Assembly: GCA_964057225.1 (NCBI GenBank)
Contig: CAXKVF010000075.1
Span: 496,001-560,000 of the forward strand
DNA length: 64,000 bases
Source: Auanema rhodensis
Lineage: Eukaryota > Animalia > Nematoda
Reading direction: 5' to 3'
Below are positions 1 to 19,262 of the stretch, in pieces. Under the pieces are notes generated by a model. The model saw only the letters and a list, made by a program, of their open reading frames with translations, searched no databases and had not been told where the DNA came from. Positions within the stretch are counted from its first letter, which is position 1, and every line of letters starts with the position of its first letter. Both the position numbers and the translations under genes were made by a program.

Positions 1-3000
1 CCCCATGTCCATATTAGTCTAAAAACAAATTTTTATTGATATTGGTGCATGGTAACCATGACTTTGAAATTTACGTGAACTTTAAATTATGCTAATTAAA
101 TGTACACGTGATGTGCACTTGGTATGTAACTCGCTTCACGTGAAAGATAAAGAGATGCGGTTTTCAAAATTAGATTCCCCATGTCCATATTAGTCTAAAA
201 ACAAATTTCTATTGATATTGGTTCATGGTAACCATGACTTTGAAATTTACGTGAACTTTAATTTATGCTAATTAAATGTACACGTGATGTGCACTTGGTA
301 TGTAACTCGCTTCACGTGAAAGATAAAGAGATGCGGTTTTCAAAATTAGATTCCCCATGTCCATATTAGTCTAAAAACAAATTTTTATTGATATTGGTGC
401 ATGGTAACCATGACTTTGAAATTTACGTGAACTTTAATTTATGCTAATTAAATGTACACGTGATGTGCACTTGGTATGTAACTCGCTTCACGTGAAAGAT
501 GAAGAGATGCGGTTTTCAAAATTAGATTCCCCATGTCCATATTAGTCTAAAAACAAATTTTTATTGATATTGGTGCATGGTAACCATGACTTTGAAATTT
601 ACGTGAACTTTAATTTATGCTAATTAAATGTACACGTGATGTGCACTTGGTATGTAACTCGCTTCACGTGAAAGATAAAGAGATGCGGTTATTGATACAC
701 TTGGTATGTAACTCGCTTCACGTGAAAGATAAAGAGATGCGGTTCTCAAAAGTAGATTCCCCATGTCCATATTAGTCTAAAAACAAATTTTTATTGATAT
801 TGGTGCATGGTAACCATGACTTTGAAATTTACGTGAACTTTAATTTATGCTAATTGAATGTACACGTGATGTGCACTTGGTATGTAACTCGCTTCACGTG
901 AAAGATAAAGAGATGCGGTTCTCAAAATTAGATTCCCCATGTCCATATTAGTCTAAAAACAAATTTTTATTGATATTGGTGCATGGTAACCATGACTTTG
1001 AAATTTACGTGAACTTTAATTTATGCTAATTGAATGTACACGTGATGTGCACTTGGTATGTAACTCGCTTCACGTGAAAGATAAAGAGATGCGGTTTTCA
1101 AGATTAGATTCCCCATGTCCATATTAGTCTAAAAACAAATTTTTATTGATATTGGTTCATGGTAACCATGACTTTGAAATTTACGTGAACTTTAATTTAT
1201 GCTAATTAAATGTACACGTGATGTGCACTTGGTATGTAACTCGCTTCACGTGAAAGATAAAGAGATGCGGTTTTCAAAATTAGATTCCCCATGTCCATAT
1301 TAGTCTAAAAACAAATTTTTATTGATATTGGTTCATGGTAACCATGACTTTGAAATTTACGTGAACTTTAATTTATGCTAATTAAATGTACACGTGATGT
1401 GCACTTGGTATGTAACTCGCTTCACGTGAAAGATAAAGAGATGCGGTTTTCAAAATTAGATTCCCCATGTCCATATTAGTCTAAAAACAAATTTTTATTG
1501 ATATTGGTTCATGGTAACCATGACTTTGAAATTTACGTGAACTTTAATTTATGCTAATTAAATGTACACGTGATGTGCACTTGGTATGTAACTCGCTTCA
1601 CGTGAAAGATAAAGAGATGCGGTTTTCAAAATTAGATTCCCCATGTCCATATTAGTCTAAAAACAAATTTTTATTGATATTGGTGCATGGTAACCATGAT
1701 TTTGAAATTTACGTGAACTTTAATTTATGCTAATTAAATGTACACGTGATGTGCACTTGGTATGTAACTCGCTTCACGTGAAAGATAAAGAGATGCGGTT
1801 TTCAAAATTAGATTCCCCATGTCCATATTAGTCTAAAAACAAATTTTTATTGATATTGGTTCATGGTAACCATGACTTTGAAATTTACGTGAACTTTAAT
1901 TTATGCTAATTAAATGTACACGTGATGTGCACTTGGTATGTAACTCGCTTCACGTGAAAGATAAAAAGATGCGGTTTTCAAAATTAGATTCCCCATGTCC
2001 ATATTAGTCTAAAAACAAATTTTTATTGATATTGGTGCATGGTAACCATGACTTTGAAATTTACGTGAACTTTAATTTATGCTAATTAAATGTACACGTG
2101 ATGTGCACTTGGTATGTAACTCGCTTCACGTGAAAGATAAAGAGATGCGGTTTTCAAAATTAGATTCCCCATGTCTATATTAGTCTAAAAACAAATTTTT
2201 ATTGATATTGGTTCATGGTAACCATGACTTTGAAATTTACGTGAACTTTAATTTATGCTAATTAAATGTACACGTGATGTGCACTTGGTATGTAACTCGC
2301 TTCACGTGAAAGATAAAGAGATGCGGTTTTCAAAATTAGATTCCCCATGTCCATATTAGTCTAAAAACAAATTTTTATTGATATTGGTGCATGGTAACCA
2401 TGACTTTGAAATTTACGTGAACTTTAAATTATGCTAATTAAATGTACACGTGATGTGCACTTGGTATGTAACTCGCTTCACGTGAAAGATAAAGAGATGC
2501 GGTTTTCAAAATTAGATTCCCCATGTCCATATTAGTCTAAAAACAAATTTTTATTGATATTGGTGCATGGTAACCATGACTTTGAAATTTACGTGAACTT
2601 TAATTTATGCTAATTAAATGTACACGTGATGTGCACTTGGTATGTAACTCGCATCACGTGAAAGATAAAGAGATGCGGTTTCCAAAATTAGATTCCCCAT
2701 GTCCATATTAGTCTAAAAACAAATTTTTATTGATATTGGTTCATGGTAACCATGACTTTGAAATTTACGTGAACTTTAATTTATGCTAATTAAATGTACA
2801 CGTGATGTGCACTTGGTATGTAACTCGCTTCACGTGAAAGATAAAGAGATGCGGTTTTCAAAATTAGATTCCCCATGTCCATATTAGTCTAAAAACAAAT
2901 TTTTATTGATATTGGTGCATGGTAACCATGACTTTGAAATTTACGTTAACTTTAATTTATGCTAATTAAATGTACACGTGATGTGCACTTGGTATGTAAC

Positions 3001-6000
3001 TCGCTTCACGTGAAAGATAAAGAGATGCGGTTTTCAAAATTAGATTCCCCATGTCCATATTAGTCAAAAAACAAATTTTTATTGATATTGGTGCATGGTA
3101 ACCATGACTTTGAAGTTTACGTGAACTTTAATTCATGCTAATTAAATGTACACGTGATGTGCACTTGGTATGTAACTCGCTTCACGTGAAAGATAAAGAG
3201 ATGCGGTTTTCAAAATTAGATTCCCGTGATGTGCACTTGGTATGTAACTCGCTTCACGTGAAAGATAAAAAGATGCGGTTTTCAAAATTAGATTCTCCAT
3301 GTCCATATTAGTCTAAAAACAAATTTTTATTGATATTGGTGCATGGTAACCATGACTTTGAAATTTACGTGAACTTTAATTTATGCTAATTAAATGTACA
3401 CGTGATGTGCACTTGGTATGTAACTCGCTTCGCGTGAAAGATAAAGAGATGCGGTTTTCAAAATTAGATTCCCCATGTCCATATTAGTCTAAAAACAAAT
3501 TTTTATTGATATTGGTTCATGGTAACCATGACTTTGAAATTTACGTGAACTTTAATTTATGCTAATTAAATGTACACGTGATGTGCACTTGGTATGTAAC
3601 TCGCTTCACGTGAAAGCTAAAGAGATGCGGTTTTCAAAATTAGATTCCCCATGTCCATATTAGTCTAAAAACAAATTTTTATTGATATTGGTTCATGGTA
3701 ACCATGACTTTGAAATTTACGTGAACTTTAATTTATGCTAATTAAATGTACACGTGATGTGCACTTGGTATGTAACTCGCTTCACGTGAAAGATAAAGAG
3801 ATACGGTTTTCAAAATTAGATTCCCCATGTCGATATTAGTCTAAAAACAAGTTTTTATTGATATTGGTGCATGGTAACCATGACTTTGAAATTTACGTGA
3901 ACTTTGATTTATGCTAATTAAATGTACACGTGATGTGCACTTGGTATGTAACTCGCTTCACGTGAAAGATAAAGAGATGCGGTTTTCAAAATTAGATTCC
4001 CCATCTCCATATTAGTCTAAAAACAAATTTTTATTGATATTGGTGCATGGTAACCATGACTTTGAAATTTACGTGAACTTTGATTTATGCTAATTAAATG
4101 TACACGTGATGTGCACTTGGTATGTAACTCGCTTCACGTGAAAGATAAAAAGATGCGGTTTTCAAAATTAGATTCCCCATGTCCATATTATTCTAAAAAC
4201 AAATTTTTATTGATATTGGTTCATGGTAACCATGACTTTGAAATTTACGTGAACTTTAATTTATGCTAATTAAATGTACACGTGATGTGCACTTGGTATG
4301 TAACTCGCTTCACGTAAAAGCTAAAGAGATGCGGTTTTCAAAATTAGATTCCCCATGTCCATATTAGTCTAAAAACAAATTTTTATTGATATTGGTTCAT
4401 GGTAACCATGACTTTGAAATTTACGTGAACTTTAATTTATGCTAATTAAATGTACACGTGATGTGCACTTGGTATGTAACTCGCTTCACGTGAAAGATAA
4501 AGAGATGCGGTTCTCAAAATTAGATTCCCCATGTCCATATTAGTCTAAAAACAAATTTTTATTGATATTGGTTCATGGTAACCATGACTTTGAAATTTAC
4601 GTGAACTTTAATTTATGCTAATTAAATGTACACGTGATGTGCACTTGGTATGTAACTCGCTTCACGTGAAAGATAAAGAGATGCGGTTTTCAAAATTAGA
4701 TTCCCCATCTCCATATTAGTCTAAAAACAAATTTTTATTGATATTGGTGCATGGTAACCATGACTTTGAAATTTACGTGAACTTTGATTTATGCTAATTA
4801 AATGTACACGTGATGTGCACTTGGTATGTAACTCGCTTCACGTGAAAGATAAAAAGATGCGGTTTTCAAAATTAGATTCCCCATGTCCATATTAGTCTAA
4901 AAACAAATTTTTATTGATATTGGTTCATGGTAACCATGACTTTGAAATTTACGTGAACTTTAATTTATGCTAATTAAATGTACACGTGATGTGCACTTGG
5001 TATGTAACTCGCTTCACGTAAAAGCTAAAGAGATGCGGTTTTCAAAATTAGATTCCCCATGTCCATATTAGTCTAAAAACAAATTTTTATTGATATTGGT
5101 TCATGGTAACCATGACTTTGAAATTTACGTGAACTTTAATTTATGCTAATTAAATGTACACGTGATGTGCACTTGGTATGTAACTCGCTTCACGTGAAAG
5201 ATAAAGAGATGCGGTTCTCAAAATTAGATTCCCCATGTCCATATTAGTCTAAAAACAAATTTTTATTGATATTGGTTCATGGTAACCATGACTTTGAAAT
5301 TTACGTGAACTTTAATTTATGCTAATTAAATGTACACGTGATGTGCACTTGGTATGTAACTCGCTTCACGTGAAAGATAAAGAGATGCGGTTCTCAAAAT
5401 TAGATTCCCCATGTCCATATTAGTCTAAAAACAAATTTTTATTGATATTGGTGCATGGTAACCATGACTTTGAAATTTACGTGAACTTTAATTTATGCTA
5501 ATTGAATGTACACGTGATGTGCACTTGGTATGTAACTCGCTTCACGTGAAAGATAAAGAGATACGGTTTTCAAAATTAGATTCCCCATGTCGATATTAGT
5601 CTAAAAACAAGTTTTTATTGATATTGGTTCATGGTAACCATGACTTTGAAATTTACGTGAACTTTAATTTATGCTAATTGAATGTACACGTGATGTGCAC
5701 TTGGTATGTAACTCGCTTCACGTGAAAGATAAAGAGATGCGGTTTTCAAAATTAGATTCCCCATCTCCATATTAGTCTAAAAACAAATTTTTATTGATAT
5801 TGGTGCATGGTAACCATGACTTTGAAATTTACGTGAACTTTGATTTATGCTAATTAAATGTACACGTGATGTGCACTTGGTATGTAACTCGCTTCACGTG
5901 AAAGATAAAAAGATGCGGTTTTCAAAATTAGATTCCCCATGTCCATATTAGTCTAAAAACAAATTTTTATTGATATTGGTTCATGGTAACCATGACTTTG

Positions 6001-9000
6001 AAATTTACGTGAACTTTAATTTATGCTAATTAAATGTACACGTGATGTGCACTTGGTATGTAACTCGCTTCACGTAAAAGCTAAAGAGATGCGGTTTTCA
6101 AAATTAGATTCCCCATGTCCATATTAGTCTAAAAACAAATTTTTATTGATATTGGTTCATGGTAACCATGACTTTGAAATTTACGTGAACTTTAATTTAT
6201 GCTAATTAAATGTACACGTGATGTGCACTTGGTATGTAACTCGCTTCACGTGAAAGATAAAGAGATGCGGTTCTCAAAAGTAGATTCCCCATGTCCATAT
6301 TAGTCTAAAAACAAATTTTTATTGATATTGGTGCATGGTAACCATGACTTTGAAATTTACGTGAACTTTAATTTATGCTAATTGAATGTACACGTGATGT
6401 GCACTTGGTATGTAACTCGCTTCACGTGAAAGATAAAGAGATACGGTTTTCAAAATTAGATTCCCCATGTCCATATTAGTCTAAAAACAAGTTTTTATTG
6501 ATATTGGTTCATGGTAACCATGACTTTGAAATTTACGTGAACTTTGATTTATGCTAATTAAATGTACACGTGATGTGCACTTGGTATGTAACTCGCTTCA
6601 CGTGAAAGATAAAAAGATGCGGTTTTCAAAATTAGATTCCCCATGTCCATATTAGTCTAAAAACAAGTTTTTATTGATATTGGTTCATGGTAACCATGAC
6701 TTTGAAATTTACGTGAACTTTGATTTATGCTAATTAAATGTACACGTGATGTGCACTTGGTATATAACTCGCTTCACGTGAAAGATAAAAAGATGCGGTT
6801 TTCAAAATTAGATTCCCCATGTCCATATTAATCTAAAAACAAATTTTTATTGATATTGGTGCATGGTAACCATGACTTTGAAATTTACGTGAACTTTAAT
6901 TTATGCTAATTAAATGTACACGTGATGTGCACTTGGTATGTAACTCGCTTCACGTGAAAGATAAAGAGATGCGGTTTTCAAAATTAGATTCCCCATCTCC
7001 ATATTAGTCTAAAAACAAATTTTTATTGATATTGGTGCATGGTAACCATGACTTTGAAATTTACGTGAACTTTGATTTATGCTAATTAAATGTACACGTG
7101 ATGTGCACTTGGTATGTAACTCGCTTCACGTGAAAGATAAAGAGATGCGGTTTTCAAAATTAGATTCCCCACGTCCATATTAGTCTAAAAACAAATTTTT
7201 ATTGATATTGGTGCATGGTAACCATGACTTTGAAATTTACGTGAACTTTAATTTATGCTAATTAAATGTACACGTGATGTGCACTTGGTATGTAACTCGC
7301 TTCACGTGAAAGATAAAGAGATGCGGTTTTCAAAATTAGATCCCCCATGTCCATATTAGTCTAAAAACAAATTTTTATTGATATTGGTGCATGGTAACCA
7401 TGACTTTGAAATTTACGTGAACTTTAATTTATGCTAATTAAATGTACACGTGATGTGCACTTGGTATGTAACTCGCTTCACGTGAAAGATAAAGAGATGC
7501 GGTTCTCAAAATTAGATTCCCCATGTCCATATTAGTCTAAAAACAAATTTTTATTGATATTGGTGCATGGTAACCATGACTTTGAAATTTACGTGAACTT
7601 TGATTTATGCTAATTAAATGTACACGTGATGTGCACTTGGTATGTAACTCGCTTCACGTGAAAGATAAAGAGATGCGGTTTTCAAAATTAGATTCCCCAC
7701 GTCCATATTAGTCTAAAAACAAATTTTTATTGATATTGGTGCATGGTAACCATGACTTTGAAATTTACGTGAACTTTAATTTATGCTAATTAAATGTACA
7801 CGTGATGTGCACTTGGTATGTAACTCGCTTCACGTGAAAGATAAAGAGATGCGGTTTTCAAAATTAGATCCCCCATGTCCATATTAGTCTAAAAACAAAT
7901 TTTTATTGATATTGGTGCATGGTAACCATGACTTTGAAATTTACGTGAACTTTAATTTATGCTAATTAAATGTACACGTGATGTGCACTTGGTATGTAAC
8001 TCGCTTCACGTGAAAGATAAAGAGATGCGGTTTTCAAAATTAGATTCCCCATGTCCATATTAGTCTAAAAACAAATTTTTATTGATATTGGTGCATGGTA
8101 ACCATGACTTTGAAATTTACGTGAACTTTAATTTATGCTAATTGAATGTACACGTGATGTGCACTTGGTATGTAACTCGCTTCACGTGAAAGATAAAGAG
8201 ATGCGGTTTTCAAAATTAGATTCCCCATGTCCATATTAGTCTAAAAACAAATTTTTATTGATATTGGTTCATGGTAACCATGACTTTGAAATTTACGTGA
8301 ACTTTAATTTATGCTAATTAAATGTACACGTGATGTGCACTTGGTATGTAACTCGCTTCACGTGAAAGATAAAGAGATGCGGTTTTCAAAATTAGATTCC
8401 CCATGTCCATATTAGTCTAAAAACAAATTTTTATTGATATTGGTTCATGGTAACCATGACTTTGAAATTTACGTGAACTTTAATTTATGCTAATTAAATG
8501 TACACGTGATGTGCACTTGGTATGTAACTCGCTTCACGTGAAAGATAAAAAGATGCGGTTTTCAAAATTAGATTCCCCATGTCCATATTAGTCTAAAAAC
8601 AAATTTTTATTGATATTGGTGCATGGTAACCATGACTTTGAAATTTACGTGAACTTTAATTTATGCTAATTAAATGTACACGTGATGTGCACTTGTTATG
8701 TAACTCGCTTCACGTGAAAGATAAAGAGATGCGGTTTTCAAAATTAGATTCCCCATGTCCATATTATTCTAAAAACAAATTTTTATCGATATTGGTTCAT
8801 GGTAACCATGACTTTGAAATTTACGTGAACTTTAATTTATGCTAATTAAATGTACACGTGATGTGCACTTGGTATGTAACTCGCTTCACGTGAAAGATAA
8901 AGAGATGCGGTTTTCAAAATTAGATTCCCCATGTCCATATTAGTCTAAAAACAAATTTTTATTGATATTGGTGCATGGTAACCATGACTTTGAAATTTAC

Positions 9001-12000
9001 GTGAACTTTAATTTATGCTAATTAAATGTACACGTGATGTGCACTTGGTATGTAACTCGCTTCAAGTGAAAGATAAAGAGATGCGGTTTTCAAAATTAGA
9101 TTCCCCATGTCCATATTAGTCTAAAAACAAATTTTTATTGATATTGGTTCATGGTAACCATGACTTTGAAATTTACGTGAACTTTAATTTATGCTAATTA
9201 AATGTACACGTGATGTGCACTTGGTATGTAACTCGCTTCACGTGAAAGATGAAGAGATGCGGTTTTCAAAATTAGATTCCCCATGTCCATATTAGTCTAA
9301 AAACAAATTTTTATTGATATTGGTGCATGGTAACCATGACTTTGAAATTTACGTGAACTTTAATTTATGCTAATTAAATGTACACGTGATGTGCACTTGG
9401 TATGTAACTCGCTTCACGTGAAAGATAAAGAGATGCGGTTTTCAAAATTAGATTCCCCATGTCCATATTAGTCTAAAAACAAATTTTTATTGATATTGGT
9501 GCATGGTAACCATGACTTTGAAATTTACGTGAACTTTAATTTATGCTAATTGAATGTACACGTGATGTGCACTTGGTATGTAACTCGCTTCACGTGAGAG
9601 ATAAAGAGATGCGGTTTTCAAAATTAGATTCCCCATCTCCATATTAGTCTAAAAACAAATTTTTATTGATATTGGTGCATGGTAACCATGACTTTGAAAT
9701 TTACGTGAACTTTAATTTATGCTAATCAAATGTACACGTGATGTGCACTTGGTATGTAACTCGCTTCACGTGAAAGATAAAGAGATGCGGTTTTCAAAAT
9801 TAGATTCCCCATGTCCATATTAGTCAAAAAACAAATTTTTATTGATATTGGTGCATGGTAACCATGACTTTGAAGTTTACGTGAACTTTAATTTATGCTA
9901 ATTAAATGTACACGTGATGTGCACTTGGTATGTAACTCGCTTCACGTGAAAGATAAAGAGATGCGGTTTTCAAAATTAGATTCCCCATGTCCATATTAGT
10001 CTAAAAACAAATTTTTATTGATATTGGTGCATGGTAACCATGACTTTGAAATTTACGTGAACTTTAATTTATGCTAATTGAATGTACACGTGATGTGCAC
10101 TTGGTATGTAACTCGCTTCACGTGAAAGATAAAGAGATGCGGTTTTCAAAATTAGATTCCCCATCTCCATATTAGTCTAAAAACAAATTTTTATTGATAT
10201 TGGTGCATGGTAACCATGACTTTGAAATTTACGTGAACTTTAATTTATGCTAATCAAATGTACACGTGATGTGCACTTGGTATGTAACTCGCTTCACGTG
10301 AAAGATAAAGAGATGCGGTTTTCAAAATTAGATTCCCCATGTCCATATTAGTCAAAAAACAAATTTTTATTGATATTGGTGCATGGTAACCATGACTTTG
10401 AAGTTTACGTGAACTTTAATTTATGCTAATTAAATGTACACGTGATGTGCACTTGGTATGTAACTCGCTTCACGTGAAAGATAAAAAGATGCGGTTTTCA
10501 AAAATAGATTCCCCATCTCCATATTAGTCTAAAAACAAATTTTTATTGATATTGGTGCATGGTAACCATGACTTTGAAATTTACGTGAACTTTAATTTAT
10601 GCTAATCAAATGTACACGTGATGTGCACTTGGTATGTAACTCGCTTCACGTGAAAGATAAAGAGATGCGGTTTTCAAAATTAGATTCCCCATCTCCATAT
10701 TAGTCTAAAAACAAATTTTTATTGATATTGGTGCATGGTAACCATGACTTTGAAATTTACGTGAACTTTAATTTATGCTAATCAAATGTACACGTGATGT
10801 GCACTTGGTATGTAACTCGCTTCACGTGAAAGATAAAGAGATGCGGTTTTCAAAATTAGATTCCCCATGTCCATATTAGTCTAAAAACAAATTTTTATTG
10901 ATATTGGTTCATGGTAACCATGACTTTGAAATTCACGTGAACTTTAATTTATGCTAATTAAATGTACACGTGATGTGCACTTGGTATGTAACTCGCTTCA
11001 CGTGAAAGATAAAGAGATGCGGTTTTCAAAATTAGATTCCCCATCTCCATATTAGTCTAAAAACAAATTTTTATTGATATTGGTGCATGGTAACCATGAC
11101 TTTGAAATTTACGTGAACTTTAATTTATGCTAATCAAATGTACACGTGATGTGCACTTGGTATGTAACTCGCTTCACGTGAAAGATAAAGAGATGCGGTT
11201 TTCAAAATTAGATTCCCCATCTCCATATTAGTCTAAAAACAAATTTTTATTGATATTGGTGCATGGTAACCATGACTTTGAAATTTACGTGAACTTTAAT
11301 TTATGCTAATCAAATGTACACGTGATGTGCACTTGGTATGTAACTCGCTTCACGTGAAAGATAAAGAGATGCGGTTTTCAAAATTAGATTCCCCATGTCC
11401 ATATTAGTCAAAAAACAAATTTTTATTGATATTGGTGCATGGTAACCATGACTTTGAAGTTTACGTGAACTTTAATTTATGCTAATTAAATGTACACGTG
11501 ATGTGCACTTGGTATGTAACTCGCTTCACGTGAAAGATAAAGAGATGCGGTTTTCAAAATTAGATTCCCCATGTCCATATTAGTCAAAAAACAAATTTTT
11601 ATTGATATTGGTGCATGGTAACCATGACTTTGAAATTTACGTGAACTTTAATTTATGCTAATCAAATGTACACGTGATGTGCACTTGGTATGTAACTCGC
11701 TTCACGTGAAAGATAAAGAGATGCGGTTTTCAAAATTAGATTCCCCATCTCCATATTAGTCTAAAAACAAATTTTTATTGATATTGGTGCATGGTAACCA
11801 TGACTTTGAAATTTACGTGAACTTTAATTTATGCTAATCAAATGTACACGTGATGTGCACTTGGTATGTAACTCGCTTCACGTGAAAGATAAAGAGATGC
11901 GGTTTTCAAAATTAGATTCCCCATGTCCATATTAGTCAAAAAACAAATTTTTATTGATATTGGTGCATGGTAACCATGACTTTGAAGTTTACGTGAACTT

Positions 12001-15000
12001 TAATTTATGCTAATTAAATGTACACGTGATGTGCACTTGGTATGTAACTCGCTTCACGTGAAAGATAAAGAGATGCGGTTTTCAAAATTAGATTCCCCAT
12101 TTCCATATTAGTCTAAAAACAAATTTTTATTGATATTGGTGCATGGTAACCATGACTTTGAAATTTACGTGAACTTTAATTTATGCTAATTGAATGTACA
12201 CGTGATGTGCACTTGGTATGTAACTCGCTTCACGTGAAAGATAAAGAGATGCGGTTTTCAAAATTAGATTCCCCATGTCCATATTAGTCTAAAAACAAAT
12301 TTTTATTGATATTGGTGCATGGTAACCATGACTTTGAAATTTACGTGAACTTTAATTTATGCTAATTAAATGTACACGTGATGTGCACTTGGTATGTAAC
12401 TCGCTTCACGTGAAAGATAAAAAGATGCGGTTTTCAAAATTAGATTCCCCATGTCCATATTAGTCTAAAAACAAATTTTTATTGATATTGGTTCATGGTA
12501 ACCATGACTTTGAAATTTACGTGAACTTTAATTTATGCTAATTAAATGTACACGTGATGTGCACTTGGTATGTAACTCGCTTCACGTGAAAGATGAAGAG
12601 ATGCGGTTTTCAAAATTAGATTCCCCATGTTCATATTAGTCTAAAAACAAATTTTTATTGATATTGGTGCATGGTAACCATGACTTTGAAATTTACGTGA
12701 ACTTTAATTTATGCTAATTAAATGTACACGTGATGTGCACTTGGTATGTAACTCGCTTCACGTGAAAGATGAAGAGATGCGGTTTTCAAAATTAGATTCC
12801 CCATGTCCATATTAGTCTAAAAACAAATTTTTATTGATATTGGTTCATGGTAACCATGACTTTGAAATTTACGTGAACTTTAATTTATGCTAATTAAATG
12901 TACACGTGATGTGCACTTGGTATGTAACTCGCTTCACGTGAAAGATAAAGAGATGCGGTTTTCAAAATTAGATTCCCCATGTCCATATTAGTCTAAAAAC
13001 AAATTTTTATTGATATTGGTTCATGGTAACCATGACTTTGAAATTTACGTGAACTTTAATTTATGCTAATTAAATGTACACGTGATGTGCACTTGGTATG
13101 TAACTCGCTTCACGTGGAAGATAAAGAGATGCGGTTTTCAAAATTAGATTCCCCATGTCCATATTAGTCTAAAAACAAGTTTTTATTGATATTGGTTCAT
13201 GGTAACCATGACTTTGAAATTTACGTGAACTTTGATTTATGCTAATTAAATGTACACGTGATGTGCACTTGGTATGTAACTCGCTTCACGTGAAAGATAA
13301 AAAGATGCGGTTTTCAAAATTAGATTCCCCATGTCCATATTAGTCTAAAAACAAGTTTTTATTGATATTGGTTCATGGTAACCATGACTTTGAAATTTAC
13401 GTGAACTTTGATTTATGCTAATTAAATGTACACGTGATGTGCACTTGGTATATAACTCGCTTCACGTGAAAGATAAAAAGATGCGGTTTTCAAAATTAGA
13501 TTCCCCATGTCCATATTAGTCTAAAAACAAATTTTTATTGATATTGGTGCATGGTAACCATGACTTTGAAATTTACGTGAACTTTAATTTATGCTAATTA
13601 AATGTACACGTGATGTGCACTTGGTATGTAACTCGCTTCACGTGAAAGATAAAGAGATGCGGTTTTCAAAATTAGATTCCCCATCTCCATATTAGTCTAA
13701 AAACAAATTTTTATTGATATTGGTGCATGGTAACCATGACTTTGAAATTTACGTGAACTTTGATTTATGCTAATTAAATGTACACGTGATGTGCACTTGG
13801 TATGTAACTCGCTTCACGTGAAAGATAAAAAGATGCGGTTTTCAAAATTAGATTCCCCATGTCCATATTAGTCTAAAAACAAATTTTTATTGATATTGGT
13901 TCATGGTAACCATGACTTTGAAATTTACGTGAACTTTAATTTATGCTAATTAAATGTACACGTGATGTGCACTTGGTATGCAACTCGCTTCACGTGAAAG
14001 ATAAAGAGATGCGGTTTTCAAAATTAGATTTCCCATGTCCATATTAGTCTAAAAACAAATTTTTATTGATATTGGTGCATGGTAACCATGACTTTGAAAT
14101 TTACGTGAACTTTAATTTATGCTAATTAAATGTACACGTGATGTGCACTTGGTATGTAACTCGCTTCACGTGAAAGATAAAGAGATGCGGTTTTCAAAAT
14201 TAGATTCCCCATGTCCATATTAGTCTAAAAACAAATTTTTATTGATATTGGTGCATGGTAACCATGACTTTGAAATTTACGTGAACTTTAATTTATGCTA
14301 ATTAAATGTACACGTGATGTGCACTTGGTATGTAACTCGCTTCACGTGAAAGATAAAGAGATGCGGTTTTCAAAATTAGATTCCCCACGTCCATATTAGT
14401 CTAAAAACAAATTTTTATTGATATTGGTGCATGGTAACCATGACTTTGAAATTACCGTGAACTTTAATTTATGCTAATTAAATGTACACGTGATGTGCAC
14501 TTGGTATGTAACTCGCTTCACGTGAAAGATAAAGAGATGCGGTTTTCAAAATTAGATCCCCCATGTCCATATTAGTCTAAAAACAAATTTTTATTGATAT
14601 TGGTGCATGGTAACCATGACTTTGAAATTTACGTGAACTTTAATTTATGCTAATTAAATGTACACGTGATGTGCACTTGGTATGTAACTCGCTTCACGTG
14701 AAAGATAAAGAGATGCGGTTTTCAAAATTAGATTCCCCATGTCCATATTAGTCTAAAAACAAATTTTTATTGATATTGGTGCATGGTAACCATGACTTTG
14801 AAATTTACGTGAACTTTAATTTATGCTAATTGAATGTACACGTGATGTGCACTTGGTATGTAACTCGCTTCACGTGAAAGATAAAGAGATGCGGTTTTCA
14901 AAATTAGATTCCCCATGTCCATATTAGTCTAAAAACAAATTTTTATTGATATTGGTTCATGGTAACCATGACTTTGAAATTTACGTGAACTTTAATTTAT

Positions 15001-15202
15001 GCTAATTAAATGTACACGTGATGTGCACTTGGTATGTAACTCGCTTCACGTGAAAGATAAAAAGATGCGGTTTTCAAAATTAGATTCCCCATGTCCATAT
15101 TAGTCTAAAAACAAATTTTTATTGATATTGGTGCATGGTAACCATGACTTTGAAATTTACGTGAACTTTAATTTATGCTAATTAAATGTACACGTGATGT
15201 GC
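1..15202 (+). repeat. 176-bp tandem satellite array, left arm (~86 monomer lengths; continues beyond window start)
   Basis: CCCCATGTCC recurs at 1, 177, 353 and so on (period 176). Monomers differ by only a few substitutions. Two shortened monomers lie near 691 and 3225. Confidence 0.99.
15198..15202 (+). other. Left target-site duplication TGTGC (or 4-bp GTGC, 15199-15202)
   Basis: The satellite normally reads GATGTGCACTT. The left flank ends GATGTGC and the right flank restarts (T)GTGCACTT. Confidence 0.93.
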
Positions 15203-15682
15203 TGTCGCAGTTGGCTATAGTTACCCACCTATGTTTCATGTGCTATATAACGTATAGTTATTCACAAACACTCTGTTGAGTACGTTAAACATTATATTAT
15301 CTTGAGAAGTATGTAAAACATTGATAAAACCTATATCATATAAAATCACATACTTAACTACATATAGTTAAACTACATGAATATAGTACAGTTGAATTTG
15401 TCTTGCAACGACAAGCACGAATATATCATTCTTATTTCATTTAGACAAGTTCTAACAAAGTTACAACTTTGGGCATGTTGCCAAGATCAACTACCGTAAT
15501 CAGATTATCAAGCATGCACATCTAAGATTAGTGATAAGATCAATTGTTTACCTAAAATTGTTGATATAAGATATTTGTGATATATTTTAATCAGTTTAAG
15601 TCTCTCTCTTATTTTTCTAATTTCTAATAAATTCTTTTATTCTTTGTTTTTTTTTCTTTTTTTATTATACAGTCTTTTGACT
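15203..15682 (+). repeat. 5' LTR (480 bp; 479 bp if the TSD is 5 bp)
   Basis: Starts TGTCGCAGTTGG and ends ...AGTCTTTTGAC(T). No differences from 18783-19262 seen by eye. Confidence 0.97.
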
Positions 15683-15697
15683 TGGGGGCCGAACCGG
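15683..15697 (+). promoter_or_regulatory. Primer binding site, tRNA-Pro (nematode-type acceptor stem)
   Basis: TGGGGGCCGAACCGG immediately follows the 5' LTR. It is the complement of ...CCGGTTCGGCCC-CCA, the 3' end of C. elegans-type tRNA-Pro as I recall it. The vertebrate tRNA-Pro PBS would read TGGGGGCTCGTCCGG. Confidence 0.85.
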
Positions 15698-15724
15698 TTC
15701 TCTGCTCGATTGATTGTCTTGTAT

Positions 15725-16054
15725 ATAGGGAAACGTATAGTTTCATAACCTATTTTGGGCGAATAGCTCCGTGATTAAGTCACAATCTGCCCGCATAGGG
15801 TTCTTCCAATTTTTTTTTGGATTTTTTTTTTCATTTTGAAAAAAAAAAAAAAAAAAAAAAATTTTTTTAGCACTTTCTAAGTGTTAATTAATTTTTGGAA
15901 GATTTTGAGAAAGTAATTAACTTTCTCTAATTTTTGATTTCGAGAAGAAATCAAAAATTTTTTTGTCATTATTCGTATAGAATATTCTTGACATATTTTA
16001 ATTTTTTTTCGTATAGAAAACTAATTAATTTTATTTCCAGTTGACGAATAGTCA
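15725..16054 (+). promoter_or_regulatory. Structured 5' leader: array of stem-loops with C-(GNRNA)-G pentaloops, putative packaging signal
   Basis: Seven hairpins read directly from the sequence between the PBS and the ATG (listed in findings). Function is inferred. Confidence 0.65.
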
Positions 16055-16071
16055 TTGCCTACATCTCCATC

Positions 16072-18774
16072 ATGAGTGAGGAACTGGATATCGAAATGAA
16101 CGAGGTAAGATTACCTTTTGATTTTGATAAATTTAAGAGTAATATAGATAACATTCTATCTTTTGCTCAAGAAATGATTTTAAATCATACTAAAATCGGC
16201 TGTAGACCTAGAGTCAAAGCTGAGAAAAAATTAGCTGAAATAGCTACAAATATAAAAATTTCTGTCTCTGAAATAAAATATTTTCAAGATGAAATTAAAT
16301 TGTTAGAGCAAGTCCATAATATATGTGGTACTAACAATGATAATATTTTGATTAAAATTGAAAATTTAATTAATCTTAATATTGAACATGATTCTTTACA
16401 GGCACAAGAAGTGACCGAAAAAAAATTCATGAATCTGTCTTCTGCAGATAATCGGAAAGGTTCGTTAACAAATTCTAAACTTAATGAATCTTTTTCTTCT
16501 TCACAGCTAGAAAGCTTAAAAAGAAAGAAAGAAAACTTTAGCCAAGAGTGCAGTTATCAAGGTGAGTCCTTTAATGATATTGCAAAACTCATGAAAGCCC
16601 AGTTATTACCTGAGGTTACGGCTTATAAGGGTGGATCGTATAGTGAATTCGTTGATTTCACAGAACGATTTAACTATAAATACCCAGATGATGTTTTTTC
16701 TCAACGTGAGAAAAAACTTTTATTCATCAATAAACTCCAAGGCGAGATCAGAAACCGCTATAGAGAGTTACCTGAAGCCATAAAGCAAAGTTCCTTAGAT
16801 GTCATAGTGAACAGTTTACGTAGAGAGTCAACCGTTTCACAAAGGCAGGGAAGAATGCAGGCTACTGAAAACTTGAAAAGTTTGAAATGGAATAGATCCC
16901 AGTCGTTAGTAAATTACTGCGATGAGTTGGAAAAACTAACTCAACTGGCTAATCCAGATTTAATTCCTGGTTTATTATCGTTCGAAAGAGCTAATAAACT
17001 GTACCAAGAACTTTGTAATTGTTCTTGTGGAGTTTCCATCCTTGAAAAAATAGAGGATGAGGAGGACGAAGAAATTTACGAAAAAGTAAAACAAATCGCC
17101 CTCAGATGTGAACGAAATAAGCTAACTCGTTCAATCAATCAATCCAATGAATCCGAGCAGAAACAAAACTTGAGCCGGAAACATTATTCACATTTCTCCG
17201 ACGAGAGAAGAGTGAAAAACACTAACAATAATGAAATTATTTGTGTGTATTGTAATAAAAAAGGACATACGGCAAACGTATGTTTTAAAAGACAAAATGA
17301 AAGAATAGAGAATAAAAGTGGACTTAACACTCCTCGAGAACCACCCAGCATTAACAGAAAAGCTGAGAGTTGGAATCGAGCAATCCAAATCACTTCTTGT
17401 GATTTGAGAAACCCCCCATTGTTTGGTAAACCAGCATTAGGGAGAATGACTTTATGTCAAGTTCATAAGCATGATGCATTAATAGATACTGGATCACAAA
17501 TTTCAGTTATCAGTTCATCATTGCTAGTTCGAGTAATCGACGAGTTGAAACAAAGAAAAATCAACGCAGATGAAAGAATAGTAGAACTACCATGGACTAA
17601 TGAAAAGTTCATAGTCAACGCATCAGGTGATCAAATGTATTTTGTTGGCGCCGTGCGAATGTCTGTTTTGTGTGATGAAAACCACAAAGAGGCAATTGTT
17701 GACTTTTTAGTCAGCAAAAACAAAGAAAATCAAATGATATTGGGTACAAATTGTTTGAATTCTTTAGACATATACTTGAAGTTCAATAAAACTCAAGCAA
17801 TGACTTTAAAAAGAGTGTATTTACCTCCTTTTTCGCAAAATCAAGTGTTAGTTTCTTGTGACGCGATTTCAATAAAAAGAGAAATGTTTTTTAACGCTCT
17901 TACTGCTGTTGCAGTTTCGGGAATATATCCCATCAAAGATAATATATCAACCGTGAATTTACATAATAACACGGACAACCCTGTGATAATTAAGGCAGGA
18001 GAATTTATAGGTCACTGGAGATCTGGTTTTGAAACAATAGAGCCAAATCCAGCGATAAAAAAGATCAGTTTGAGAGAAAAACCTGAACACGAATGCGAAA
18101 TACAGCATCAGGACTCTTACCGATTGGATAAACGAACTTTTGAGAGTCAAAAGTTTAAAGCTCCTAATTTGGGGTTAGTTAAAAATAATGTGCAGGTTGC
18201 TCTAAATGAAGCCGACCTAACACATACTGATATGGTCACAAAACCAATCAGACAGAAAGTTCGACCTGTTCCTATTAGAGTCAGGAACGGATTTAAGAAG
18301 GTTTTCAAAAATCTTCTAAACAAGAGAATGAATGGACCTAGCAATAGTGCTATGGCTCTTCCTATTGTTTCAATAGAAAATAAAAATAGGAATGATAAAA
18401 CCAAAAAAAGGTTTAAATCATACTATGATAAAAAGAGTGAGAAAAAATCCGATTCACCAAAAATAAGTGATCGAGTTTTCATTAAAATACCTTTTGAAAA
18501 AAGAGGTGATCCGAATAAGAAACAAGCTTTCGATTTTCGAGGACCGTACAGAGTGATATCAGAATATAACACTTCTGCATTTATTAATGAACTAGAGGAA
18601 AACAAAAAACCTTTAAAAGTTCAAACAGACTTACTATACAAAATTCCTGACCAATTGGGAATAGTAACTGTTAAAACAAAACGTAATAGAAAAAAAATTA
18701 CGTGTAATCATATCTGTGAAAGTTTTTCCTTTAATGAAGAGATTTTACTTCTCGAGGACGAGAATTTTTTGTAG
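16072..18774 (+). CDS. gag: 900-aa retrotransposon Gag-protease polyprotein with RT N-terminal remnant fused to integrase C-terminal (GPY/F) region
   Basis: Uninterrupted ORF. Capsid-like region YKGGSYSEFVDFTERF; CCHC knuckle CVYCNKKGHTANVC (aa 391-404, 17242-17283); protease ALIDTGSQIS (D472, 17485-17493) and ILG (17737-17745); RT-start-like KPIRQKVRPVP...SNSAMALPIVSIENK (18241-18384); INT-CTD-like FKSYYDKK...ISDRVF...FRGPYRV (GPY at 18541-18549). No YxDD, RNase H, HHCC or DD35E motif found. Confidence 0.93.
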   Translation: MSEELDIEMNEVRLPFDFDKFKSNIDNILSFAQEMILNHTKIGCRPRVKAEKKLAEIATNIKISVSEIKYFQDEIKLLEQVHNICGTNNDNILIKIENLINLNIEHDSLQAQEVTEKKFMNLSSADNRKGSLTNSKLNESFSSSQLESLKRKKENFSQECSYQGESFNDIAKLMKAQLLPEVTAYKGGSYSEFVDFTERFNYKYPDDVFSQREKKLLFINKLQGEIRNRYRELPEAIKQSSLDVIVNSLRRESTVSQRQGRMQATENLKSLKWNRSQSLVNYCDELEKLTQLANPDLIPGLLSFERANKLYQELCNCSCGVSILEKIEDEEDEEIYEKVKQIALRCERNKLTRSINQSNESEQKQNLSRKHYSHFSDERRVKNTNNNEIICVYCNKKGHTANVCFKRQNERIENKSGLNTPREPPSINRKAESWNRAIQITSCDLRNPPLFGKPALGRMTLCQVHKHDALIDTGSQISVISSSLLVRVIDELKQRKINADERIVELPWTNEKFIVNASGDQMYFVGAVRMSVLCDENHKEAIVDFLVSKNKENQMILGTNCLNSLDIYLKFNKTQAMTLKRVYLPPFSQNQVLVSCDAISIKREMFFNALTAVAVSGIYPIKDNISTVNLHNNTDNPVIIKAGEFIGHWRSGFETIEPNPAIKKISLREKPEHECEIQHQDSYRLDKRTFESQKFKAPNLGLVKNNVQVALNEADLTHTDMVTKPIRQKVRPVPIRVRNGFKKVFKNLLNKRMNGPSNSAMALPIVSIENKNRNDKTKKRFKSYYDKKSEKKSDSPKISDRVFIKIPFEKRGDPNKKQAFDFRGPYRVISEYNTSAFINELEENKKPLKVQTDLLYKIPDQLGIVTVKTKRNRKKITCNHICESFSFNEEILLLEDENFL

Positions 18775-18782
18775 GACGGGGA
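18773..18782 (+). promoter_or_regulatory. Polypurine tract (short, imperfect)
   Basis: AGGACGGGGA abuts the 3' LTR and overlaps the ORF stop codon. It is preceded by CTCGAGGACGAG (18751-18762), a GAGGAC-type motif often seen upstream of Gypsy PPTs. Confidence 0.75.
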
Positions 18783-19262
18783 TGTCGCAGTTGGCTATAG
18801 TTACCCACCTATGTTTCATGTGCTATATAACGTATAGTTATTCACAAACACTCTGTTGAGTACGTTAAACATTATATTATCTTGAGAAGTATGTAAAACA
18901 TTGATAAAACCTATATCATATAAAATCACATACTTAACTACATATAGTTAAACTACATGAATATAGTACAGTTGAATTTGTCTTGCAACGACAAGCACGA
19001 ATATATCATTCTTATTTCATTTAGACAAGTTCTAACAAAGTTACAACTTTGGGCATGTTGCCAAGATCAACTACCGTAATCAGATTATCAAGCATGCACA
19101 TCTAAGATTAGTGATAAGATCAATTGTTTACCTAAAATTGTTGATATAAGATATTTGTGATATATTTTAATCAGTTTAAGTCTCTCTCTTATTTTTCTAA
19201 TTTCTAATAAATTCTTTTATTCTTTGTTTTTTTTTCTTTTTTTATTATACAGTCTTTTGACT
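18783..19262 (+). repeat. 3' LTR (480 bp; 479 bp if the TSD is 5 bp)
   Basis: Direct repeat of 15203-15682, preceded by the purine tract and followed by the TSD. Confidence 0.97.
19206..19211 (+). terminator. Probable polyadenylation signal AATAAA in the 3' LTR (twin at 15626-15631)
   Basis: AATAAA lies ~50 bp before the LTR end and is followed by a long T-rich tract. Confidence 0.6.

Follow-up and report, generated by a model that had tools for sequence, protein, structure and literature searches.

The window, i.e., the whole 64-kb stretch of DNA analysed here, consists of a 176-bp satellite array with a single interruption at 15203-19262, where an element of 4.06 kb is inserted. The main features of the locus are as follows:

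1-15202, continuing at 19263-64000, no strand assigned: 176-bp satellite array hosting the insertion
15203-15682, plus strand: 5' LTR, 480 bp, identical to the 3' LTR
15683-15697, plus strand: primer binding site (PBS), assigned by sequence; its self-hairpin extends to 15701 in the predicted fold
15691-15700, plus strand: 10-nt palindrome overlapping the PBS and mostly dictated by the PBS sequence
16072-18774, plus strand: single ORF of 900 aa with a Gag-like N-terminal part, a CCHC knuckle, an aspartic protease and an integrase-tail-like end
17242-17283, plus strand: CCHC knuckle, motif intact
17485, plus strand: DTG aspartic protease motif, intact
18541, plus strand: GPY motif of the integrase-tail-like end
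18773-18782, plus strand: purine-rich tract directly 5' of the 3' LTR, a PPT by position
18783-19262, plus strand: 3' LTR, with a weak GUAUA hairpin at 18827-18841

The insertion point is a GTGCAC palindrome within one satellite unit, with a duplication of 4-5 bp: the target duplication is the 4 bp GTGC, or 5 bp when the last T is assigned to the flank instead of to the LTR. The LTR ends (15203-15206 and 15679-15682) read TGTC...GACT (or GAC) as opposed to the usual TG...CA. On its minus strand, the satellite has one match per unit to the pentaloop motif C-GNRNA-G that is discussed below (335 counted), which by eye is stemless past the closing pair.

Paired LTRs, a target duplication, a PBS and a PPT are thus all present, as is typical of an LTR retrotransposon, and there is no tRNA gene within the element. 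The first 14 nt of the PBS are identical to the tRNA-Pro(TGG) PBS of Cer1, the Gypsy/Ty3 element of Caenorhabditis elegans, which likewise lies beside the LTR (PMC3315495; this and the other papers are cited here for the available parts of their text). This match is indicative of a nematode Gypsy element. The PBS itself is predicted to be mostly paired (unpaired 0.28), and the palindrome at 15691-15700 is a candidate dimer contact, a role suggested by its sequence and place.

The first half of the ORF is Gag-like (Atlas 0.94 to the Retrotrans_gag/zf-CCHC clusters), whereas the downstream assignments are weaker: the protease Pfam match has an E-value of 6e-05 and the SH3_Tf2-1 match in the tail one of 0.043, with Atlas leads there below 0.9, and every Pfam match to the ORF falls below the curated cut-offs. 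The order of a Gag with a CCHC knuckle followed by a protease is that of Gypsy/Ty3 elements. We recovered no Pfam match in the ORF to the RT, RNase H or integrase core that an autonomous element would encode. By eye, residues that we take to be the first ones of RT lead in frame into the GPY integrase-tail-like stretch at 18241-18600; that the frame stays open across this join suggests continued translation of the tail. The ORF lacks an arginine-rich motif (maximum of 4 R per 15 residues). Its single-sequence fold was unusable (pLDDT 36.5), a PDB sequence search gave three weak matches, protein searches found no homologous proteins, and scans for related loci found no relative among viral and genome contigs. 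Loci recovered by a PBS-plus-loop pattern (5 viral, 6 metagenomic and 6 from prokaryote genomes) were rejected as relatives: they have no match to the ORF and are unlike an AT-rich retroelement leader, and were therefore treated as chance.

Together, these features point to a pol-less, Cer1-type Gypsy LTR retrotransposon, a classification drawn from sequence. It resembles Cer1 in having a single ORF that is uninterrupted by a stop from gag into the protease; its Gag is likewise long, with one zinc knuckle and an N-terminal part that is helical (PMC3315495, PMC10309623), and an acceptor-like site precedes gag (PMC3315495). It differs in size (4.06 kb against 8.8 kb) and in having no detected RT, RNase H, integrase core or CERV exon. 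In coding for Gag and protease without the enzymes while retaining intact ends, it is also comparable to the TR-GAG-like non-autonomous LTR elements (PMC13570524); however, those were described from plants, and the present element retains an in-frame integrase-tail-like end. The identity of the 480-bp LTRs, combined with the absence of RT, suggests recent copying with the enzymes of a helper. A still shorter derivative exists: contigs of two DNA sequencing runs join across 16371 to 18754, i.e., most of the ORF.

Between the PBS and gag, the leader is occupied by an array of hairpins. Its parts, together with the related hairpin of the LTR, are:

15247-15261, plus strand: LTR copy of the GUAUA hairpin, weak, overlapping a TATATAA at 15244
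15725-15753, plus strand: hairpin 1, C-GUAUA-G loop, 5-bp stem plus an outer stem
15757-15769, plus strand: hairpin 2, C-GAAUA-G, one G.U pair
15771-15783, plus strand: small hairpin without the loop motif, predicted by folding
15789-15801, plus strand: hairpin 3, C-GCAUA-G, one G.U pair, folding on the plus strand only
15804-15873, plus strand: U-tract/A-tract spacer separating two hairpin clusters and ending in an acceptor-like TTTTTAG at 15870
15907-15927, plus strand: 8-bp hairpin with a different pentaloop, without the motif, predicted by folding
15929-15959, plus strand: hairpin 4, C-GAGAA-G, 13 bp
15964-15993, plus strand: hairpin 5, C-GUAUA-G with an outer stem
15998-16028, plus strand: hairpin 6, C-GUAUA-G with an outer stem
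16029-16040, plus strand: splice-acceptor-like site ending in TTTCCAG, 31 nt 5' of the gag AUG, between hairpins 6 and 7
16042-16054, plus strand: hairpin 7, C-GAAUA-G

All seven hairpins were found where the first-pass annotation had placed them, with the stems and loops it gave: GNAUA in six of seven loops, C-G closure in seven of seven, and a single G.U pair in hairpin 2 and another in hairpin 3. They form two clusters with a within-cluster spacing of 26-36 nt, and the two motif-free hairpins are interspersed among them. An eighth hairpin, which the same annotation had counted in each LTR, is indeed there, but is weak (pairing probability 0.04-0.51) and overlaps the TATA-like box, and is hence not to be counted as equal to the seven. 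In the 5' LTR it probably lies upstream of the RNA start, judging from its position; in the 3' LTR it would fall in the 3' untranslated part of the RNA. The acceptor-like sites were assigned with the nematode acceptor consensus, and each is a consensus match alone. By analogy with Cer1, the site at 16029-16040 is a candidate trans-splice site.

We then compared the hairpins with each other. When the eight are aligned on their loops, 32 of 32 cells pair, 14 of them with a two-sided change, and none of 500 shuffles matches this; the aligned hairpins are paralogues rather than orthologues, chosen by loop motif and coordinates. All four Watson-Crick types are used at the pair next to the closing pair. 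Thus, the stems are free, while the C-G closure and loop positions G1, A3 and A5 are fixed (GAGAA in hairpin 4 being the one leader loop outside GNAUA), and the fourth loop base is U in seven of eight loops (p about 0.01). All seven leader loops belong to the GNRNA class and four of them fit CGYAYAG. Loops of the GNRNA class adopt a GNRA-like fold in which the fourth base is flipped away from the stack and the loop G is held in a sheared G.A pair (PMC9830547). Given that an identical loop has been solved, the loops of the array probably share this sheared G.A pair, three-base stack and extruded fourth base. Conservation of a base that is turned out is more easily explained by a reader than by stability alone, although U at this position could also come from common descent of the loops.

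The closest structural counterpart is the CGYAYAG pentaloop family: hairpins 1, 5 and 6 and the LTR hairpin match the exact closing pair and loop of its representative, C-GUAUA-G, whose structure was determined within a CRISPR repeat in complex with its endoribonuclease (PDB 2XLK; PMC9830547), and hairpin 3 fits the pattern. CRISPR repeats have one fixed stem and are read base-specifically and cut, so that the fold is all that is common to the two and no homology is implied. The endoribonuclease of PDB 2XLK is presumably Csy4/Cas6f. Lambda boxB, named earlier as an example of such loops, is a more distant precedent. It shares the GNRNA class and the turned-out fourth base, but lambda N requires a U-A closing pair in boxB (bioRxiv 2025.04.11.648485), in contrast to the uniform C-G closure here and the ORF without an arginine-rich motif.

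The array is non-random by several measures. First, C-GNRNA-G matches have a stem of at least four pairs in seven of seven cases in the leader (15683-16071, 389 nt), as against one of five in the ORF and none of four on the element's minus strand; the one stemmed motif of the ORF has a pairing probability of 0.00. An AAUC/GGUU stem in gag (16450) was likewise rejected as a candidate (pairing probability 0.00). Second, the comparison with shuffled sequence that had been proposed for the leader came out in favor of the array: none of 20,000 dinucleotide shuffles reaches three stemmed motifs (maximum 2), and a motif that arises in the shuffles has a stem of at least four pairs in 833 of 9750 cases. 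As the motif was chosen post hoc, we also allowed the shuffles to pick their own best motif. In one version of this control, dominated by A/T runs, 19 of 2000 shuffles reach at least 7. In the corrected version, which counts non-overlapping hairpins with any 4-7 nt loop that agree in the closing pair and in 2, 3 or 4 letters of the loop, none of 1500 reaches the observed 7, 6 and 6 (shuffle maxima 5, 5 and 4). Third, none of 125 unrelated loci has four stemmed motifs per 400 nt, the best being two tandem repeats with three; 119 of these loci had been chosen for three clustered loop motifs, among the matches listed, and the other six came from the PBS-plus-loop patterns. Rfam offered no family match, its four matches (E 0.17-4.2) all lying far under the gathering score.

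The folding data bear on the strand and the molecule involved. With the leader taken alone, the closing pairs of all seven hairpins have probabilities of 0.82-1.0 on the plus strand; that of hairpin 2 falls to 0.45 in a longer context. The folding z-score is -7.1 on the plus and -5.8 on the minus strand, where hairpins 2 and 3 drop to 0.01-0.02 and the other five fold too. The earlier proposal that the G.U pairs mark RNA as the working form holds up, in that hairpins 2 and 3 fold on the plus strand only. A neutral or DNA-level origin, by local duplication or template switching or as double-stranded binding sites like an insulator array, would draw on the readiness of AT-rich DNA to form inverted repeats, on the five hairpins that fold on both strands, and on the occurrence of copies without whole hairpin clusters. 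Yet the flanks of the hairpins are unrelated in sequence and complementary in every copy, a pairing that duplex sites do not need; the G.U pairs work on the plus strand only; and as DNA, six of the seven cores reach just -0.8 to -2.2 kcal/mol. We regard this as the least probable of the readings weighed here. The array is real, and the data support selection on structure plus loop. We found no description of a same-loop hairpin array in a retrotransposon leader in the open literature; the array is apparently undescribed so far, whereas its loop fold and its place in the PBS-gag interval are of already known kinds.

The element or a part of it is contained in 10 of 13 listed sequencing runs. 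Contigs from five runs were used for the comparison of copies, and these comprise near-identical copies and one diverged sister leader; apart from a loose end, their coverage excludes 15757-15873, and hairpin 3 is uncovered. The sister leader retains five of the six loops seen (hairpins 1, 2, 4, 5 and 6):

Hairpin 1: core unchanged, outer stem two pairs longer
Hairpin 2: A-U in place of G.U, loop GUAUA
Small motif-free hairpin at 15771-15783: stem kept
Hairpin 4: inner 9 bp and loop unchanged
Hairpin 5: one A-U changed to G.U, fifth (terminal) pair broken
Hairpin 6: core unchanged
Hairpin 7: stem kept, loop motif lost; the loop is GAAAA in near-identical copies

Two core stem changes are A-U/G.U swaps, which preserve pairing on the plus strand only, and between the homologous leaders (one sister leader compared) there is no two-sided compensatory change. 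The claim that structure rather than sequence is conserved thus stands for the paralogous hairpins, where covariation is strong; between homologous leaders the changes are one-sided and one loop is lost. Nor are the cores depleted of change, with three of the six sister-type substitutions listed in 15933-16092 falling inside the 13-nt hairpin cores. The acceptor-like AG of the site ending at 16040 is kept in both leader types. The 3' part of the leader has fewer substitutions than early gag (7/160 versus 50/304, p 9e-5; 8/160 versus 38/257, p 0.002; 6 gaps ignored), a contrast that is suggestive only, since the leader and gag contigs are unlinked. One contig is without hairpins 1-3 and another without hairpins 5-7.

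Where the stems of the two leader types differ (15758, 15971 and 15911-15912), A and G are exchanged opposite a U, a trace that might come from selection for wobble pairs or else from A-to-I editing of the hairpins. A contig of the X9 run (15676-15697 and 15933-16092) shares the PBS, carries only the second hairpin cluster and differs in the sequence that precedes the LTR end; it is possibly a recombinant between families.

The pattern of retention bears on two further explanations. The array might be a structural scaffold that no specific protein reads: stable GNRA-like caps would seed the folding of an AU-rich leader, or would dock into receptors and thereby compact the RNA or bring about its dimerisation. 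The well-stacked, defined fold of C-GUAUA-G (PMC9830547) fits this, as do the two motif-free hairpins among the seven and hairpin 7 of the sister leader, which keeps its stem and loses its loop. We nevertheless consider a scaffold quite unlikely: it leaves unexplained the use of pentaloops instead of GNRA tetraloops and the turned-out U in seven of eight loops, and the solved C-GUAUA-G example is protein-bound and without tertiary contacts (PMC9830547). Alternatively, the array might recruit initiation factors for the translation of gag behind a long structured leader. The GNRNA pentaloop is the eIF4G-binding part of the plant-virus BTE (PMC3597692), and no AUG occurs from 15515 to the gag start. 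However, BTEs have one loop within a 17-nt conserved sequence (PMC3597692) as opposed to seven free-standing copies here, and the loop that the sister leader has lost is that of hairpin 7, which lies closest to the AUG; a translation element is accordingly a very unlikely account.

The reading we favor, tentatively and at a probability of about 0.45, is that the seven hairpins are a redundant RNA docking array that would be read by the Gag of the element family and would select full-length RNA for packaging. Here, the reader would be the family's Gag polyprotein, picking full-length RNA; the recognised unit would be the loop shape with its turned-out U, with the stems acting as free presenters; and several Gag molecules would bind together, weak single sites adding up to avidity. 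As first proposed, the array does occupy a position typical of packaging signals, between the PBS and gag, and retroviral packaging signals are comparably placed (PMC8396678, PMC8096270). The retroviral and Ty1 Psi regions are further comparable in being structured cis regions just 3' of the PBS with a palindrome nearby and, if the leader is spliced as supposed below, in their confinement to unspliced RNA (PMC8396678, PMC8096270, PMC11499389). They differ in that each consists of a single folded domain or of one or two special loops, according to the available text of these papers, whereas here there are seven modular hairpins with one loop and unrelated stems.

In Cer1, SL1 is trans-spliced to the subgenomic RNA but not to the 8-kb genomic RNA (PMC3315495). 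If this pattern holds here, hairpins 1-6, which lie 5' of the acceptor-like site, would be kept on unspliced RNA only and so be specific to the genomic RNA. The sole hairpin past that site, hairpin 7, is also the one whose loop is lost in the sister leader, a single observation. Being enzyme-less and recently copied, the element may use such a tag to enter particles that also hold helper Gag-Pol. No autonomous partner was recovered, and the original suggestion that the array allows a pol-less element to compete for helper particles and enzymes is a conjecture.

Several findings count against recognition by Gag: the ORF has no arginine-rich motif, the G of the loop is buried in its sheared pair whereas zinc knuckles usually bind an exposed G, no two-sided change separates the leaders, the loop of hairpin 7 is lost, and contigs without hairpins 1-3 or 5-7 exist. 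RNA binding by Ty1 Gag is, moreover, of low specificity (PMC8396678). Alternatively, the reader may be a host factor or a Rev-like, multimeric protein encoded by an element (comparable to CERV of Cer1 and provided in trans), with the array as its response element, through which unspliced RNA would skip trans-splicing and exit the nucleus. CERV is required for the export of Cer1 genomic RNA and is predicted to form rings of at least five subunits, and the available text of PMC10309623 names no RNA target for it. Cer1 genomic RNA has to skip the SL1 site (PMC3315495), the acceptor-like site at 16040 is flanked by hairpins 6 and 7, and lambda N reads a GNRNA loop by means of an arginine-rich motif (bioRxiv 2025.04.11.648485). 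On the other hand, no CERV-like coding region is evident in the element, whose ORF runs directly into the PPT, and the acceptor is a consensus match only. An export element is a serious but unlikely alternative to packaging by Gag. The available parts of PMC3315495 and PMC10309623 describe no hairpin array in the Cer1 leader, and none of the motifs occurs in the four text supplements of the latter.

A broader proposal, which we put forward as speculative and unlikely, is that the genomic RNA of nematode Cer1-type elements bears a family-specific barcode of C-GNAUA-G loops on freely evolving stems, set within the part removed by trans-splicing and counted through avidity by a multimeric reader, be it a Gag hexamer or a CERV-like ring. 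RNA selection by Gypsy-type Gag is poorly defined, and even the Psi of Ty1 is mapped only roughly (PMC8396678). The array serves as its own internal alignment, in which seven natural variants separate the fixed features of the loop from the free stems, and it yields both a minimal substrate of 13-15 nt for binding tests and a search motif for the helper element in nematodes. If the proposal is true, the loop barcode would give the Cer1-type group its first defined RNA signal, and would be one case of a more general code in retrotransposon leaders, with the same loop on free stems, that enzyme-less copies keep for packaging.
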